Assembly (NCBI GenBank): GCA_903835255.1
Contig: CAILMI010000026.1
Location: 2,740 to 66,739 of the forward strand
Direction of reading: 5' to 3'
From: an uncultured Verrucomicrobia subdivision 3 bacterium
Lineage (GTDB): Bacteria; Verrucomicrobiota; Verrucomicrobiia; Limisphaerales; UBA11358
Length of the DNA: 64,000 bases
In this document: one piece after another, positions 24,721-30,761 of the stretch
How the letters are laid out: each line of letters starts with the position of its first letter
How positions within the stretch are numbered: the stretch's first letter is position 1
Program-made: the position numbers and the translations under genes
The notes under the pieces: model-generated
Seen by the model: only the letters and a program-made list of their open reading frames with translations
The model's database searches: none
Told to the model about the DNA's origin: nothing

Positions 24721-24834
24721 GGCTGGAAAAATAAACCACGGCGGACGCCCTGTCACGACGAGAAGCGGGGACGGACCGATCCGGTTCACCGAAGTTATTT
24801 GAGACCGCGCCGGCCGACGGCTATCTTGTCGCGC

Positions 24835-25161
24835 ATGAAATCCGCCGCACATACCGCCCTGGTCCTGGTCACCGCGCCGGACCTAAAGACCGCCCGGAGC
24901 CTGGCCGGGAAGGCGCTCCAGGCGCGCCTAATCGCCTGCGCCACACTGGTACCGAGGGTCGAATCACATTACCTGTGGCGGGGGAAGCGGACCTCGGCTG
25001 CAGAGGTGCTTCTCCTCCTCAAGACCCGGAAAACGAAACTGGCCGCGCTGGAAAAACTGGTGCTCGCCGCGCATCCCTACGACACCCCGGAGTTCCTGGT
25101 TTTGACCCTGACAGCCGGTACGCCGAAGTATCTCGACTGGCTGGCGGCCAGCTGCCCCTGA
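24835..25161 (+). CDS. cutA: Divalent-cation tolerance protein CutA
   Basis: C-terminal part of the 24040 ORF: LIACAT, SHYLWRG, HPYDTPE; promoter TTGAGA-17-TATCTT directly upstream. Confidence 0.88.
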   Translation: MKSAAHTALVLVTAPDLKTARSLAGKALQARLIACATLVPRVESHYLWRGKRTSAAEVLLLLKTRKTKLAALEKLVLAAHPYDTPEFLVLTLTAGTPKYLDWLAASCP

Positions 25162-25240
25162 ACGCGGACGCCGCATTCCTCCGGGGCGGAATTCAGGGCC
25201 ACCCGACCTGGGGCATGGGCCGGCACAAACCAGACAAGCC

Positions 25241-25330
25241 CCACCCACACTGACTCGTTGAGCGACGAGGCAAAGGATAAAGAGGGGGAGATTTGGATCT
25301 CCGGAAAGTGCTTCCACCTCCAATTTTATT
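25241..25330 (+). repeat. Degenerate direct repeat, copy 1 (left flank of lower-GC cassette)
   Basis: Shares CCAC.CAC..GAC...TTGAGCG.CG.GGCAAAGGATAAAG..GGGGAGATTTGG ... CACCTCC..TTTTATT with 30041-30118. Confidence 0.75.
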
Positions 25331-25446
25331 GCTGCTTAAAAACGGGAATGGACAGAAAAAAAATGCAGAATAATATTAATTTTTTCAGCGGTATTATTCA
25401 TAAACGGAACTGGAAATATGGCTGTTCAACTTAACCTTGGCATATC

Positions 25447-25540
25447 GGTGGGCGGGGCGGGCAACCCCCTGCCCGCCGCTGTTGCCCATCATCGCGGGCT
25501 GACTGACCACGGCGGCGCTCACGGAGCAACGCGACCCACC
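25447..25540. repeat. REP-like element of the same family as the rluE insertion
   Basis: 25513-25540 matches 3266-3293 at 20/28 nt; internal GCGGGCA/TGCCCGC hairpin. Confidence 0.6.
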
Positions 25541-25631
25541 AGCCCACAGTTGCCAAGAACGGCTATAGAGGGGCAGATCTGCCTTAGTTTAGACCCGAAG
25601 AGTTTGAACTGACGCGCAGGAAACAACGGAT

Positions 25632-27056
25632 ATGCTGTTTAATTCCCTCACCTTTTTAGCCTTCTTCGCCTTGGTCTTGGGGCTGCATCGCCTGCCAATC
25701 GCTTGGCGGGCAAAGAAGTTCAACCTCTTGGTGGCCAGCTACATTTTTTACAGCGCCTGGAATCCGGTTTTTCTGCCACTCCTCATGGCGACAACGGTTT
25801 TAGATTGGGCGGCAGGGTCGTTGATTTACAAAGCTAAAACACCCACTTCCAAGCGCGCTTACTTAATCATAAGCCTGGTCGGCAATCTGGGGATGCTGTC
25901 CTTTTTTAAGTATGGCGAGTTTTTTTTGGAAAACTTTACCCGCCTTGTTCAGGGATTCGGAATTCATTATGCCCCCCCGCAATGGAGCCTTCTCCTGCCC
26001 CTCGGAATTTCATTTTACACTTTCCACTCCCTCTCCTACGTGCTCGACCTATACCGGGGCAAAGCCAAGCCCGTAGAATCCTTTCTGGACTACGCGCTCT
26101 TCGTTACATTTTTTCCAACCCTAGTCGCCGGACCGATTCTGCGAGTCCATCAATTTGCACCGCAACTTGTCAAACCGAAGGCGGCCACCGGCGAGCAATT
26201 CAGCCGCGGGCTAGGACTGCTCGTGCTGGGGTTATTTGAGAAGTGCGTATTGGCAGACGGCGTGTTCGCTCCAGTCGTCAATGCCGTTTATGATTCCCAC
26301 CAGGTGCCGGATTTTTTCTCCGCCTGGTCGGCGCCCATTCTTTTTGGCTCTCAGATATTCTGCGATTTTGCCGGCTACTCCACCTGCGCAGTCGGGACGG
26401 GTCTCTGCTTTGGGTTTTTGATTCCAAACAACTTTAGAAACCCATTTGCCGCCGTCGGTTTTTTTGATCTCTGGAGTCGCTGGCATATTTCATTGTCCAC
26501 CTGGATGCGCGATTATGTTTTCCTCTCCATGCGCGGGAGCCTTCGACGCGGCACCCGCGCCTCCTTCAATTTATTTTTCACAATGGCACTCGTCGGATTG
26601 TGGCATGGCGCTTCCTGGACATTTGTCGTCTGGGGATCCCTCCAGGGGGGATTGCTGATTCTCGAACAATATCTGAGACGCTGGTGGGGCAATCTGGCCT
26701 TTCTGAACACTCTTCCCGGCCAACTCGGTCTCGCTTTGCTGACTTCGCTGGTTGCGCGGTTGACCAATGTTTTTTTTCGCGCAGGGAGCCTGTCAGAGGC
26801 CTGCCGGATTTTCAAGGGACTGACAGGCGCCGCCGGTGAAGGCGCTTTGTTTTCTGTGGACCGACTGGACGCCGGAGTGGCGTGGGGGGTCGCGGCGGCA
26901 ATTTTTGCCTGGCAATGGTGGAATCGTGATGAACCCGCTCAGAAGCCGCACCCCAATTTCGGCTGGGGGGCACAGGTTGTCGGGGTAAGCATCATGCTAG
27001 TTTTAATCATCATCGCATCCGGAGAAGACAATGCGTTTATCTATTTTCAATTCTGA
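25632..27056 (+). CDS. MBOAT O-acyltransferase (AlgI/DltB family)
   Basis: LPLGISFYTF, LVAGPI, DFAGYS, WSRWHISLSTW, GLWHGA. Confidence 0.92.
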   Translation: MLFNSLTFLAFFALVLGLHRLPIAWRAKKFNLLVASYIFYSAWNPVFLPLLMATTVLDWAAGSLIYKAKTPTSKRAYLIISLVGNLGMLSFFKYGEFFLENFTRLVQGFGIHYAPPQWSLLLPLGISFYTFHSLSYVLDLYRGKAKPVESFLDYALFVTFFPTLVAGPILRVHQFAPQLVKPKAATGEQFSRGLGLLVLGLFEKCVLADGVFAPVVNAVYDSHQVPDFFSAWSAPILFGSQIFCDFAGYSTCAVGTGLCFGFLIPNNFRNPFAAVGFFDLWSRWHISLSTWMRDYVFLSMRGSLRRGTRASFNLFFTMALVGLWHGASWTFVVWGSLQGGLLILEQYLRRWWGNLAFLNTLPGQLGLALLTSLVARLTNVFFRAGSLSEACRIFKGLTGAAGEGALFSVDRLDAGVAWGVAAAIFAWQWWNRDEPAQKPHPNFGWGAQVVGVSIMLVLIIIASGEDNAFIYFQF

Positions 27057-28113
27057 CACCCCCTACAGTTCACCCTGGTGGAAGATGTGGCTACTGGTGC
27101 TGCTTCTGACAGGCTCACTCCTCGGCGGCGTGGAGCTTTACTGGCGAATCGGCGGACACCTCCCTCGGGTCAAAGACGACAAACCGCTTTGGGCTTACTA
27201 CCGCCAGCGGGCGTCCTCTGCTGATACCCAGACGGTGGCTCTCCTAGGGGCTTCAGAAATCCAGACCGGCTTTTCATTGGAAACGTTTTCCAAGAGCTTC
27301 CCGGATTACCAGGTGAACCAGCTAGGCATCAGCGGGACCGGACCTTTGCCCGCTCTAAGGGACTTGGCGAACGACGAAAATTTTCGGGGCGTCATCATTT
27401 GCGCGATCAACCCGAAAACGCTTGCCGACAAGGATCCCCGCAATTTGCAGAATTCCTTTGTTCACTACTACCATACGCAGACCACCCTTAACTCCCGACT
27501 CAATCGGCGATGGGGCGCCCGGCTTGAAAACAGCCTGGTCCTTTTAAGCGATCGCCTGAGCCTCCAGAGCTGCCTTCATGCCTGGCAGGGTTACCATGCC
27601 TTCCCCGGACCCATCGAAAGATACATGACGGATGAGCGCGAGTTGCGGATTGATTTCTCGAAGATGGCCCCCGCCCGGCTTTCGGATTTACACGCCCGGC
27701 GACTGGATTATTTTGCCAAGAATTACCCCCCCGGCATTTACAAACCCGCCCCATGGCTTGAAACCGCGCTCCGGATCGAACCGGAAATTGAAAAAATTCA
27801 GCGCCGGGGCGGCCAAGTGGTGTGGGTGCGCTTTCCACTGGATGCCCAAGCCGACGCCCTGATTGAGAAAAGCACGCCCCACGCGGAATTCTGGGACCGA
27901 TTTGTCACCCAAACGAAAGCCATCACCATTGATTGCCACACCCTTCCCGAACTTGCGACATTCTCCGCGCCGGACACCACGCACCTCGACTGTCGCGACG
28001 CGCCCCGATTCACCGCCGCCCTCCTGAAACAGCTGGTCAGGAAAGGGGTCCTTCCTCCCAGCAAGACTCTGGTTGCCATGGAGGAAAAACCCTATCCCCC
28101 GCCTTTGGAATGA
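27031..28113 (+). CDS. Membrane-anchored AlgJ/DltD-like (SGNH-like) partner of the MBOAT
   Basis: N-terminal TM, LLGASE (G-S-like), NQLGISG, DTTHL (DxxH); overlaps MBOAT end. Confidence 0.55.
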   Translation: MRLSIFNSDTPYSSPWWKMWLLVLLLTGSLLGGVELYWRIGGHLPRVKDDKPLWAYYRQRASSADTQTVALLGASEIQTGFSLETFSKSFPDYQVNQLGISGTGPLPALRDLANDENFRGVIICAINPKTLADKDPRNLQNSFVHYYHTQTTLNSRLNRRWGARLENSLVLLSDRLSLQSCLHAWQGYHAFPGPIERYMTDERELRIDFSKMAPARLSDLHARRLDYFAKNYPPGIYKPAPWLETALRIEPEIEKIQRRGGQVVWVRFPLDAQADALIEKSTPHAEFWDRFVTQTKAITIDCHTLPELATFSAPDTTHLDCRDAPRFTAALLKQLVRKGVLPPSKTLVAMEEKPYPPPLE

Positions 28114-28474
28114 CAAACGGAAAATAATATCGGGATCCATTAGCCCGCATCGCCAGTACGGCGAACCAAGTCATCCCGGGGTGCGAAGATTTTGATGTTG
28201 ATCGAGCTCGAAAAAAAATCCGCCTTCCATTGCAGGCATAGAAATACAACCCTTTCCCCGCACCTTGGACAACTCCCGCGCCGGCCCAAATAACGCCCAA
28301 GATGCGGACGCGATCGCAGAGCTTGAATCCATGTGTTCCCAAGGCTACACTCTTTTAGCTTTTCCGGCATCTGCGTTTGGATGGCTGGATTTGCATTCCA
28401 AATTTCGGAAGCATCTGGAAACCCAGTCGGGCGGTCTCGATCACGCGCCGGATTATATCGTTTATCAATTGTGA
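28110..28474 (+). pseudogene. Disrupted ~120-codon ORF between the AlgJ-like and KAS genes
   Basis: ATGA overlap with the upstream stop and GTGA overlap with the downstream start; in-frame TAA at 28125 and frameshift(s) near 28180 and the A8 run at 28211-28218; intact 3' part 28265-28474. Confidence 0.6.
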
Positions 28475-29703
28475 GCCAGAGACTCAAATCACTACTTCAA
28501 CAGGAGCCGATCGGCGTTACTGGGCTTGGTGTTTTTTCAGCCGCCGGAGGCACGAAAACGGAGTTTTTTAACACCCTTCTTCAGGGGCGCTCCCCGGCAG
28601 TATTTGCATCCATGGACAATCGCCGCATCCCCTTGTGCTGCGCGCCGGAAGCAGACCTGAACCTTGCCGGGTTACGCAAGTTTTCAAAACATGACCGTGC
28701 GGTTCAAATGGCTCTGATTGCCGCTCAACAATCGTGGGAAGAATCCCAACTCGCATCCAAACCGGTTCCTCCAGATCGCATTGCTGTGCTGGTAGGAACT
28801 TCCCGCAGCGTGATTGGAAAAACAATCGCAGCCGCAACCATTCAAAACAGTTCCCAGATTCTGCCCAGCCTGGCTCCCCATTCGACCATTGCGGCGTTGA
28901 GCGGGGCCTTGGGTCAATATTTCGAGACACGCGGACCTGCTTTGACCATTTCAGCCACTTGCGCTTCCACGGGACACGCCATCGCCCTGGCCGCACAGCA
29001 AATTCTCCTAGGGGTGGTGGATGTGGCACTTGTCGGCGGGAGTGAAGCGCCAATTTTGCCCTCGCTAGTCCTCCAAATGCATGCCGCTGGGGTTTTAGGG
29101 TCGCACGAAAGAGCCGAATTGGCTTGCCGACCCTTTTCCGCCTGCCGCAATGGAACCATTATTGGCGAAGGCGCAGGCTTTCTGGTGTTGGAATCATTAC
29201 GCTCAGCCCGCCGCCGCGGAGTCGAAGTTCTGGCGCAATTGACGGGATGGTCAACCGGATCGGATATAACACAACGCACCTCCATCAGCCAAGATGCCGA
29301 ATCCACCCGCCTTAATCTTATGTCCGCACTGGAACTTGCCGACCTGCGACCCCACCAAATCGGTTACGTTCACACCCATGGCACTGGCACCATTATGAAT
29401 GATTTGGCTGAAGCCCGCGCGCTGCATCAGATCTTTGGCGACAAAGTTGCCTGCTCCTCCACGAAAGCGGTTACCGGACATTGCATGGGGGCCTCAGCAG
29501 CCCTCGCATCGGTCACCGCGATTCTCGCCATGAACTCTAGCTGGTTACCCCCCAGCGCCAACTGCTTGAATCCGGACCCGGATTGCAAATTGGATCTAAT
29601 TCGCAACGCCCCCCGCAAAGTCCGACCCGATGCGGTGGTGACGAATTCTTCCGGATTTTGGGGGACGAGTTCCGTGCTGGTTTTTTCACGAGAGAAGAAA
29701 TAG
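28471..29703 (+). CDS. Beta-ketoacyl-ACP synthase II (FabF)-like protein
   Basis: Cys-His-His triad: TISATCAST, HTHGTGT..ND, STKAVTGHCMGA; C-terminal NSSGFWG instead of NSFGFGG; GTG 28471. Confidence 0.85.
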   Translation: MSQRLKSLLQQEPIGVTGLGVFSAAGGTKTEFFNTLLQGRSPAVFASMDNRRIPLCCAPEADLNLAGLRKFSKHDRAVQMALIAAQQSWEESQLASKPVPPDRIAVLVGTSRSVIGKTIAAATIQNSSQILPSLAPHSTIAALSGALGQYFETRGPALTISATCASTGHAIALAAQQILLGVVDVALVGGSEAPILPSLVLQMHAAGVLGSHERAELACRPFSACRNGTIIGEGAGFLVLESLRSARRRGVEVLAQLTGWSTGSDITQRTSISQDAESTRLNLMSALELADLRPHQIGYVHTHGTGTIMNDLAEARALHQIFGDKVACSSTKAVTGHCMGASAALASVTAILAMNSSWLPPSANCLNPDPDCKLDLIRNAPRKVRPDAVVTNSSGFWGTSSVLVFSREKK

Positions 29704-30040
29704 GCCCAACGCCTGTGCCGGCTATCGCCAGCGTCGCAGAACCCAGCAGATATCCTCGGGGCTGTATTAAGGCAATCTGAGGCAAGCCGATTGGATTGGG
29801 GCAGCGCACCACGGCAGCCAGTCGTCATTTTCACATTTACCAAAGAATCCCTCAATTACCTACTGATGAAAGCAGCCTCTTTATGACTTTTACGCTCTGG
29901 GCATAGCTTTTCATTTTTTCATCAGACCATCGCAAAAACTCCCAATAAGGGGTGGGCTCACGAGTTGCCAGGCTTTTGGATTGGTAAACTCAGGTGACGA
30001 CCTTTCTTGCGTATTTACAACGGCGCGACCCCAGCACCCT

Positions 30041-30118
30041 CCACCACACCGACCTCTTGAGCGTCGGGGCAAAGGATAAAGGGGGAGATTTGGGAGTTCT
30101 TTCACCTCCGGTTTTATT
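30041..30118 (+). repeat. Degenerate direct repeat, copy 2 (right flank of lower-GC cassette)
   Basis: Aligns by eye to 25241-25330. Confidence 0.75.
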
Positions 30119-30170
30119 CTATTGCCGGCGCCTCCGGTTTTGCGCAGAGTGCGACAGGGAAAGGAATCAC

Positions 30171-30761
30171 ATGGCCTATAACATTGAACTGGAACTCCAG
30201 AAATTTTCAAAGGCCGTCCCGCTCCGGGACGGCAAAACCGCCACGCTGCGACCGCTCCACGCGGCTGATGAAAAGGGGCTACACCAGCTCTTCCTCGACA
30301 TCCCGGAGCCGGAACGGATGTTCATCAAGCATCGGGTGACCGATCTCAAAGTCATCCATGACTGGTGCCAGCAGATCGATTACGGGCGCAACCTGCCTCT
30401 GGTAGGACTGCTCGGCGGGAAGATTATTGGCGCGGCCACGCTGCATCAGCAGCTGGGCGGCTGGAAACGCCATATTGGACGCGTGAGCGTGCTGGTCCAC
30501 CCCGAATTCCGCGGACGCGGCCTAGCCCGCGCGCTGATCGCCGAGATTCTGGGATTTGCGCGCAGCGAGGGGTTGGAAAAGGTCGAAGCGGAATTCATTG
30601 GGGAGCAGGCGACGGCGATGCACATGTTTGCCATGCTCGGCTTCAGCCAGCTGCTGCGGCTAGAGGATTACGTGAAGGACATGCAGGCCATTTCGCACGA
30701 TTACATCCTGATGGGGCTAGAGCTGAAGACCAACGAGGAATACGCCGGCGTGGGCGGATAA
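30171..30761 (+). CDS. GNAT family N-acetyltransferase
   Basis: VLVHPEFRGRGLARAL acetyl-CoA motif; ATG 30171 after AAAGGA. Confidence 0.85.
   Translation: MAYNIELELQKFSKAVPLRDGKTATLRPLHAADEKGLHQLFLDIPEPERMFIKHRVTDLKVIHDWCQQIDYGRNLPLVGLLGGKIIGAATLHQQLGGWKRHIGRVSVLVHPEFRGRGLARALIAEILGFARSEGLEKVEAEFIGEQATAMHMFAMLGFSQLLRLEDYVKDMQAISHDYILMGLELKTNEEYAGVGG

Follow-up and report, generated by a model that had tools for sequence, protein, structure and literature searches.

The stretch of DNA analysed here, called the window throughout, comprises 64,000 nucleotides of a contig (CAILMI010000026.1, positions 2,740 to 66,739 of the forward strand) from an uncultured Verrucomicrobia subdivision 3 bacterium. 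It carries three same-strand open reading frames (ORFs) that encode, in this order, a membrane-bound O-acyltransferase (MBOAT), a protein that we call ORF2 and a FabF-like beta-ketoacyl synthase (ketosynthase, KS), Table 1. The genome to which the window belongs measures 3.17 Mb and is 97.5% complete, and its RpoA groups with proteins that bear the name Limisphaerales or Verrucomicrobiota. We consider here what the MBOAT and ORF2 do as a pair, and how the KS relates to them.

Table 1 Features of the locus (positions are those of the window)
Feature	Position	Strand	Details
Left copy of the imperfect direct repeat bracketing the islet	25190-25335		Core 25245-25289
Promoter-like site	25349-25377	+	In AT-rich sequence, upstream of MBOAT; consensus match only
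MBOAT acyltransferase, 474 aa	25632-27056	+	PF03062, E 2.5e-29; His325 (26604-26606); FIYFQF 27036-27053, with Tyr471
ORF2, 360 aa	27031-28113	+	Membrane helix, residues 16-40; DltD-like SGNH domain (predicted); Ser75 (27253-27255); Asp315 and His318 (27973-27984)
ORF2-KS spacer	28114-28470	+	Holds a decayed gene fragment (small ORF 28265-28474)
FabF-like beta-ketoacyl synthase (KS), 410 aa	28471-29703	+	Cys164 in SATCAS (28951-28968); His303 in HTHGTGT; Lys332 and His337 in STKAVTGHC; NSSGFWG 29644-29664
Right copy of the bracketing direct repeat	29992-30135		Core 30044-30088; just before the GNAT gene

An earlier note on this DNA had described the genes as linked by overlaps. This is the case for MBOAT and ORF2, since the ATG of the latter falls inside the MBOAT gene and the two share 26 nucleotides up to the MBOAT stop, but not for ORF2 and the KS. 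The KS ORF as listed opens at a GTG at 28333; because the alignment to the closest homologue begins four residues past the GTG at 28471, we place the start at that second codon. Judging from this alignment, the KS gene most likely has the extent given in Table 1, the start at 28333 being an upstream extension, and the spacer that follows the end of ORF2 is therefore 357 nucleotides long.

Among curated families the MBOAT comes nearest to DltB, reaching 163 bits with model TIGR04091, the cut-off of which is 375, and its sole solved relatives are DltB structures (8jem, 6bug; E 1e-26). Because the DltB alignment runs through the catalytic WHG, the catalytic histidine can be assigned to His325. 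The protein ends in FIYFQF, which fits FXYXXF, the C-terminal acyl-shuttle hexapeptide of MBOAT-SGNH acyltransferases (PMC12148441), and both features are conserved without exception in the 71 full-length homologues, all of which retain the His and a C-terminal FxYxxF (FIYFQF itself in 66). MBOATs to which the motif is fused have been described as using acyl-CoA, with no need for a carrier protein, and how MBOAT-SGNH pairs work has been established for PatA/PatB and Dlt (PMC12148441).

The partner, ORF2, is matched by none of the Pfam and NCBIfam models, those for ALGX and DltD included, even when the Pfam search is relaxed to E 10, and the same models find nothing in 19 members of its family. 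Its candidate active-site residues appear in the order Gly73-x-Ser75 ... Asp315-x-x-His318, the one that is canonical for SGNH proteins and that DltD and PatB also show. In the family alignment G73, S75 and H318 are invariant, position 315 is occupied by Asp or Glu, and an N-terminal membrane helix is present. In AlgJ and AlgX, by contrast, the triad is reportedly permuted, with Asp-x-His before Ser (Baker et al. 2014). An AlphaFold2 model of ORF2 (pLDDT 86.9, pTM 0.85) was compared with known structures in two ways. Foldseek returned DltD for all of its top nine matches (E 5e-6 to 3.5e-4), and with VIA the best of all PDB entries was the DltD structure 6o93 (Z 11.3 over 243 residues), while TesA, OafB and PatB were found at Z 10-11 over spans shorter than that of DltD, of about 160-178 residues. 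As far as the predicted structure goes, ORF2 is a membrane-anchored, DltD-like SGNH protein by fold, and no DltD family member by sequence. Neither of the two named families accommodates it: an ALGX-type match and a permuted triad are both lacking, which together with a predicted fold closest to DltD speaks against the AlgJ-like identity proposed earlier, and in the case of DltD there is no model match, the block of inserted DNA that carries the genes (below) has no adenylation enzyme or carrier protein, and the genome has a single PP-binding gene.

Although a word-indexed search gave only 21 sequences, the family of ORF2 is not small, and the idea that it is very rare was dropped: a profile search recovered 2915 cluster representatives, and 1489 of these have E values of 1e-30 or lower. 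Some gammaproteobacterial loci (L006, L009, L013, L018, L144) hold two ORF2 paralogues, which flank the MBOAT or stand in tandem after it. The N-terminus of ORF2 is conserved as MxxSISSSE (MRLSIFNSD in the window) and is encoded where the gene overlaps, by 23-26 nucleotides, the MBOAT codons that specify the invariant FIYFQF tail (27031-27056 in the window), the same junction being found in L008, L010 and other loci. This conservation is probably a by-product of the overlap.

The two genes keep each other's company elsewhere. Genomes and metagenomes were scanned with a peptide pattern derived from an 8-sequence alignment, which favours the gammaproteobacterial subgroup and leaves the distant ORF2 subgroups P0012-P0024 outside, and the sampled loci come mostly from gammaproteobacterial soil metagenome-assembled genomes (MAGs). 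MBOAT lies directly upstream of ORF2 at all 18 genome loci, which are from species-representative genomes (Rudaea, Tahibacter, Lysobacterales and Rhodanobacteraceae MAGs), and at 61 of the 73 metagenome loci, that is, wherever the contig reaches so far. A KS stands beside the pair at none of the 18 genome loci, with flanks of up to 8 kb, and at none of the 71 metagenome loci of other lineages, giving 0/89 other pair loci; the window MBOAT is 40-52% identical to the homologues in such KS-free pairs. The order CutA-MBOAT-ORF2-fragment-KS-GNAT of the window is repeated exactly in two metagenome contigs of the same species-level lineage, L136 and L137, whose proteins are 99% (MBOAT), 95% (ORF2) and 97% (KS) identical to those of the window. 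Among the metagenome contigs of this lineage are Ga0114966_10019654 and Ga0209086_10007666. At one metagenome locus, L196, a partial KS-like ORF lies 3.7 kb upstream of the pair.

The recurrent neighbours of the pair are UvrB, GspH, HemY, MnmE and YidC, and no polymer-synthesis genes were linked to it in any locus examined. Since these neighbours are unrelated housekeeping genes, the pair can be regarded as a stand-alone module. The catalytic His, the FXYXXF tail and an adjacent gene for a protein of predicted SGNH fold are traits that it shares with the PatA/PatB-type MBOAT-SGNH pairs. The suggestion that MBOAT and its partner acylate a surface polymer has thus gained support, the partner being of the SGNH type. 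By analogy with the studied systems, this is an ordinary MBOAT-SGNH polymer acylation pair, belonging to an unannotated subfamily that has neither a Pfam model nor a studied member.

The KS matches both ketosynthase models, PF00109 (E 4e-33) and PF02801 (E 6e-25), and its best PDB matches are FabF enzymes (E 1e-60). The active-site Cys, the two His and the Lys are retained, as expected of an elongating ketosynthase of the Cys-His-His type in the thiolase superfamily, and by these residues the enzyme is predicted to be catalytically intact. It is set apart from housekeeping FabF by score, by tree and by its location away from fab and acpP genes. Against the housekeeping fabF model TIGR03150 it scores 269.8 bits, where the equivalog cut-off is 493.75, and it stays under every curated cut-off. 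It is 32% identical to the genome's own FabF, which adjoins the sole ACP gene, acpP, on contig C29. In a tree of 74 sequences, obtained by a quick IQ-TREE search, a branch with 100% support parts the KS clade from FabF and FabB, the genome's own FabF included. The phylogeny that the earlier note had called for, FabF versus specialised KS, thus comes out on the side of a specialised enzyme that does not group with housekeeping FabF.

Throughout this clade the signatures GFWG and TGHC(M/L)G replace the GFGG and TGH(L/M)LG of FabF. The C-terminal NSSGFWG had been noticed before, and is indeed present; its proposed meaning, a dedicated unusual acyl donor, finds no backing, the motif being a trait of the whole clade, most members of which sit beside LpxL-type or unrelated genes. 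Of 201 genomes sampled from the same order, 27 were found to have the clade, the window's own among them, and it was also found in one other species of the genus. A search of a 400-genome phylum sample at E 1e-85 gave no match beyond the window's own genome, the clade appearing only in the order-level samples. Directly upstream, on the same strand, 15 of the 32 other KS-clade loci have an LpxL-type acyltransferase (PF03279), including the genome G837, which holds the closest genomic homologue of the window KS (54% identity). The upstream genes of the remaining loci are varied (S13 peptidase, ABC ATPase, GFO/IDH oxidoreductase, DUF4380, and a protein resembling a nonribosomal peptide synthetase (NRPS) of composition C-T-TE). 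None of the 32 carries MBOAT, ORF2 or a detectable acyl carrier protein (ACP). Seen from both sides, then, the linkage of MBOAT with a KS, which was to be looked for elsewhere, was not found outside this species-level lineage (0/89 pair loci, 0/32 KS loci).

Among the KS-clade loci there is a recurrent Limisphaerales module in which an LpxL-type acyltransferase is followed by a GFWG/TGHC KS, often with a Haem_oxygenas_2 gene (PF14518) nearby and with no ACP (L036:8582-11658, L037:8782-11592, L110-L113, L120, L122, L123, L126, L221 and L226-L229). This module may represent an undescribed route of lipid acylation in Limisphaerales. At L222:10464-13415 (genome G744), an NRPS-like protein with Condensation, PP-binding and Thioesterase domains is encoded directly upstream of a KS homologue that is 48% identical to the window KS.

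The spacer between ORF2 and the KS is not simply empty. The small ORF within it resembles, at 36-47% identity, a ~65-residue module encoded at no fewer than 10 places in the same genome (among them L232:832-13622, L230:922-3003, L231:851-3151 and L233:864-5249), where it stands at the C-terminus of, or inside, proteins of 435-1462 residues with GT2, GT4, WbsX or sulfotransferase domains. The module follows the pattern FPQ..DG.Y...P.D.ADAIAQLEALR..G..YLL.P..AFWWL..Y..F..HL, and the scans made reported no Pfam family for its stretches. The TGA of the small ORF overlaps the GTG of the KS (GTGA, 28471-28474). In the sister lineage L137 a 75-nucleotide deletion (28217-28291) removes the TTG start of the small ORF, and the substitutions within it are mostly non-synonymous, which marks it as a decaying 3' fragment of another gene. 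Because the spacer holds such a fragment, the pair and the KS are joined through a remnant and not by a designed junction. Two other identities for this stretch were rejected. The small ORF has no PP-binding, other Pfam or Rfam match and no C-terminal FXYXXF, and is a fragment of the glycosyltransferase-associated module as opposed to an ACP or a DltX-like microprotein. The spacer is likewise no truncated LpxL-like gene captured together with the KS, as ten LpxL-like proteins compared with 27900-28600 by tblastn gave only noise.

In the closest relative, G003, whose RpoA is 95% identical, cutA and the GNAT gene abut, while in the window they lie about 4.96 kb apart, homology to the GNAT region of G003 resuming at 30123-30138. 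The intervening DNA is bracketed by the imperfect direct repeat of Table 1, the 45-nucleotide cores of which are 82% identical at a spacing of 4799, with an alignment that extends to about 110 nucleotides at 76%. The GC content at third codon positions (GC3) amounts to 0.62 for MBOAT, 0.67 for ORF2 and 0.57 for the KS, against 0.73-0.80 for the flanking genes and 0.73 +/- 0.08 for the genome, and a search of 40 relatives, 24 of which are species of the same genus, did not yield ORF2. Given the abutting genes in G003, the bracketing repeat, the low GC3 and the absence of ORF2 from these relatives, all three genes constitute one imported block, or islet, of about 4.9 kb between cutA and the GNAT gene. 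A further copy of the repeat turned up neither in the rest of the window's genome nor in 60 genomes from the genus, and with only two copies it is not a genome-wide repeat family. It is also no known RNA, since an Rfam scan of 24800-30400 gave nothing credible (a single match to a miRNA model, E 0.36).

The junction itself varies within the genus: in addition to the abutting genes of G003 and the 4.9-kb islet of the window (25162-30122), 0.8-1.0 kb of unrelated DNA is found there in G020 and G007 (L083:2953-3728, L084:9543-10504), and the cutA-GNAT junction is a possible hot spot of insertion. Further upstream, between mqnA and cutA (24729-24862), lies a break in synteny with the closest relatives. 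In G003 the OGG-ComB-MqnA and the CutA-GNAT-L17-RpoA genes are on different contigs, and CutA was not found within 13 kb of MqnA.

Taken together, we regard it as likely that MBOAT and ORF2 form a complete MBOAT-SGNH O-acyltransferase, and that the KS is a functional passenger, a separate unit. A block of about 4.9 kb with two separate functional units would have been inserted between cutA and the GNAT gene in one Limisphaerales lineage. The first, MBOAT with ORF2, would be self-sufficient, an extracytoplasmic O-acyltransferase made of two proteins and of the kind known from PatA/PatB, AlgI/AlgJ and DltB/DltX/DltD. By analogy with these, His325 of the MBOAT would draw an acyl group from a thioester donor in the cytoplasm, acetyl-CoA being the most likely one, and the group would be placed on Tyr471 of the MBOAT's own FIYFQF shuttle peptide, on the outer side of the membrane. 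Ser75 of ORF2, with His318 and Asp315, would then pick it up and transfer it to a hydroxyl of an envelope glycan. The second unit would be the FabF-like KS of a Limisphaerales-specific clade. In that clade the KS usually follows directly upon an LpxL-type lipid acyltransferase (15/32), and the clade is therefore likely to supply a membrane lipid with a special acyl chain. In this genome the KS is without an LpxL partner and would have to use the single housekeeping AcpP. Its adjacency to the pair is most likely a by-product of the assembly of the islet and not a sign of a shared pathway.

Several observations weigh against this separation. All three genes lie on one strand in one repeat-bracketed insertion. 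Neither a terminator-like site on the + strand, anywhere in 24800-30300 and thus also between ORF2 and the KS, nor a promoter-like site in the spacer was detected, and for this reason the KS is probably transcribed by read-through from the MBOAT promoter. Compared with L137, the flanking genes differ by 3-5%, MBOAT by 0.6% and the KS by 2.3%, and because the KS substitutions are distributed 8/2/18 over the three codon positions, the comparison of the sequences shows purifying selection on the KS, with the same arrangement kept in two lineages that differ by 3-5% in the flanks. No LpxL-like homologue exists in the window or in the whole genome, which bears on the use to which the KS product could be put, and the MBOAT is the sole acyltransferase nearby. 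The sample has its bounds as well, the contexts read being those of 89 other pair loci and 32 KS loci, from an ORF2 family of 2915 representatives and 183 close KS relatives. Finally, residues, motif, fold and gene pairing can be read at this locus; analogy supplies the rest, namely the donor, the acyl group and the polymer that is modified.

Some of these observations would suit a different explanation, in which the KS modifies or elongates a chain on AcpP and the resulting acyl-ACP, longer-chain or beta-keto, serves as the dedicated donor of the MBOAT, much as DltB takes D-alanine from DltC; what reaches the surface polymer would then be an unusual acyl group in place of acetate. The joint arrival as one bracketed block under purifying selection in two lineages, the shared strand with no terminator-like site between the genes and the missing LpxL-like partner can all be read in its favour, as can the fact that the nearest curated and solved relatives of the MBOAT are DltB, a carrier-protein user. 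We nevertheless consider it improbable. The linkage is unique to this lineage, homologues 40-52% identical to the MBOAT work without any KS, and roughly one half of the KS-clade members have unrelated genes for neighbours. A fused FXYXXF tail is what acyl-CoA-dependent systems without a carrier typically have (PMC12148441). ORF2 and the KS stand 357 nucleotides apart, with a gene remnant and an indel polymorphism in the spacer. The islet also holds no other fatty-acid synthesis genes and no ACP, the latter in line with what had been noted before; the sole PP-binding match of the 97.5%-complete genome is on contig C29, beside the housekeeping FabF. The proposal that the KS provides a dedicated acyl donor to the MBOAT is thus not supported, given a linkage confined to one lineage, a clade-wide motif, the scar of a gene fragment and a shuttle tail that points to acyl-CoA use. 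Slightly more doubtful still is its most specific form, a new three-part system in which the KS would build a longer or beta-keto chain on the housekeeping ACP, the tyrosine shuttle of the MBOAT would be charged directly from this acyl-ACP, and the DltD-like SGNH protein would pass the chain to a surface glycan. If true, a carrier protein would for the first time be seen to feed an MBOAT-SGNH pathway other than D-alanylation, and such a pathway would for the first time add an acyl group of the fatty type; in the literature we found no paper that joins MBOAT, SGNH and ketosynthase.

One could also speculate that the islet is what is left of a larger glycan-modification cluster, composed of MBOAT, SGNH protein, a glycosyltransferase or sulfotransferase with the ~65-residue module, and KS, from which the middle gene has been largely deleted. 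The KS would once have been part of a lipid-linked or acylated glycan pathway, and would now be idle or re-used. The homology of the spacer fragment to a module of GT2, GT4, WbsX and sulfotransferase proteins fits this idea, as does the overlap of its stop with the KS start, which resembles a formerly coupled gene pair, and the 75-nucleotide deletion in the sister lineage indicates that decay continues. The GTGA overlap could however be due to chance, an intact arrangement of this kind is seen at none of the 89 pair loci and none of the 32 KS loci, none of which carries the module, and purifying selection implies that the KS is not idle; we therefore hold this remnant scenario to be unlikely too. 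That the cassette is imported cargo without function and in the course of being lost, as its foreign composition, its decaying spacer and the absence of ORF2 and the direct repeat from every same-genus genome searched might suggest, is very improbable in view of three intact ORFs with catalytic residues in place, KS substitutions relative to L137 that fall mainly on third codon positions and an MBOAT that differs by only 0.6%.

Returning to the reading of a self-sufficient pair with a passenger KS, one point of interest is the pair itself. Pairs of the MBOAT-SGNH kind modify peptidoglycan, alginate, cellulose and teichoic acids, with effects on how well lytic enzymes are resisted and on the properties of biofilms. 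An SGNH partner of the ORF2 type looks more like the Gram-positive DltD than like PatB or AlgJ, and the position of the pair, alone among housekeeping genes, points to a ubiquitous envelope target, the identification of which would widen the known range of envelope acylation in Gram-negative bacteria. A link between KS and MBOAT, if true, would deserve notice, but the comparative data speak against it.

Among known systems, the paradigm of bacterial MBOAT-SGNH acyltransferases is the peptidoglycan O-acetyltransferase PatA/PatB of Neisseria and Campylobacter (PMC12148441). The window pair shares with it the layout of an MBOAT, with catalytic His and C-terminal FXYXXF, followed by an adjacent membrane-anchored SGNH protein with a Ser-His-Asp triad, as well as the absence of a carrier protein or microprotein and the stand-alone position among housekeeping genes. 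It differs in that ORF2 has no detectable sequence relationship to PatB and is larger (a DltD-like span of ~245 aligned residues, compared with ~165 for PatB), and in that no Ape-type esterase gene lies near the window pair. The resemblance to DltB/DltX/DltD is one of parts: DltB provides the best curated and solved matches of the MBOAT, and DltD the best structural matches of ORF2, these two having the N-terminal anchor and the order of the triad in common. Here, however, the shuttle motif is fused to the MBOAT and not placed on a DltX microprotein, DltA and DltC are absent, the MBOAT reaches 163 of the 375 bits of the DltB cut-off, ORF2 has no DltD model match, and the host is a Gram-negative Verrucomicrobium. 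With AlgI/AlgJ/AlgF/AlgX the pair has in common an MBOAT with a fused C-terminal shuttle motif and, after it, a periplasmic SGNH-like partner. Unlike AlgJ and AlgX, which have their own Pfam model and, reportedly, the permuted triad, ORF2 has the canonical order and no such match, and AlgF, AlgX and alginate genes are all missing. For the KS, the nearest parallel in gene layout is the rhizobial very-long-chain fatty acid cluster acpXL-fabZXL-fabF2XL-fabF1XL-lpxXL, in which dedicated FabF-like KS genes stand beside an LpxL-type acyltransferase (PMC11901934, PMC5613085), just as the Limisphaerales KS-clade loci pair a KS with such an enzyme. These verrucomicrobial loci differ in having one KS and no dedicated ACP or dehydratase, and the window, with no LpxL-type gene and no second ACP, does not itself belong to a module of this kind. 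With housekeeping FabF (KAS II) the KS shares the fold and the Cys-His-His-Lys set, but it falls in a separate clade, bears the GFWG/TGHC signature and does not lie beside acpP.

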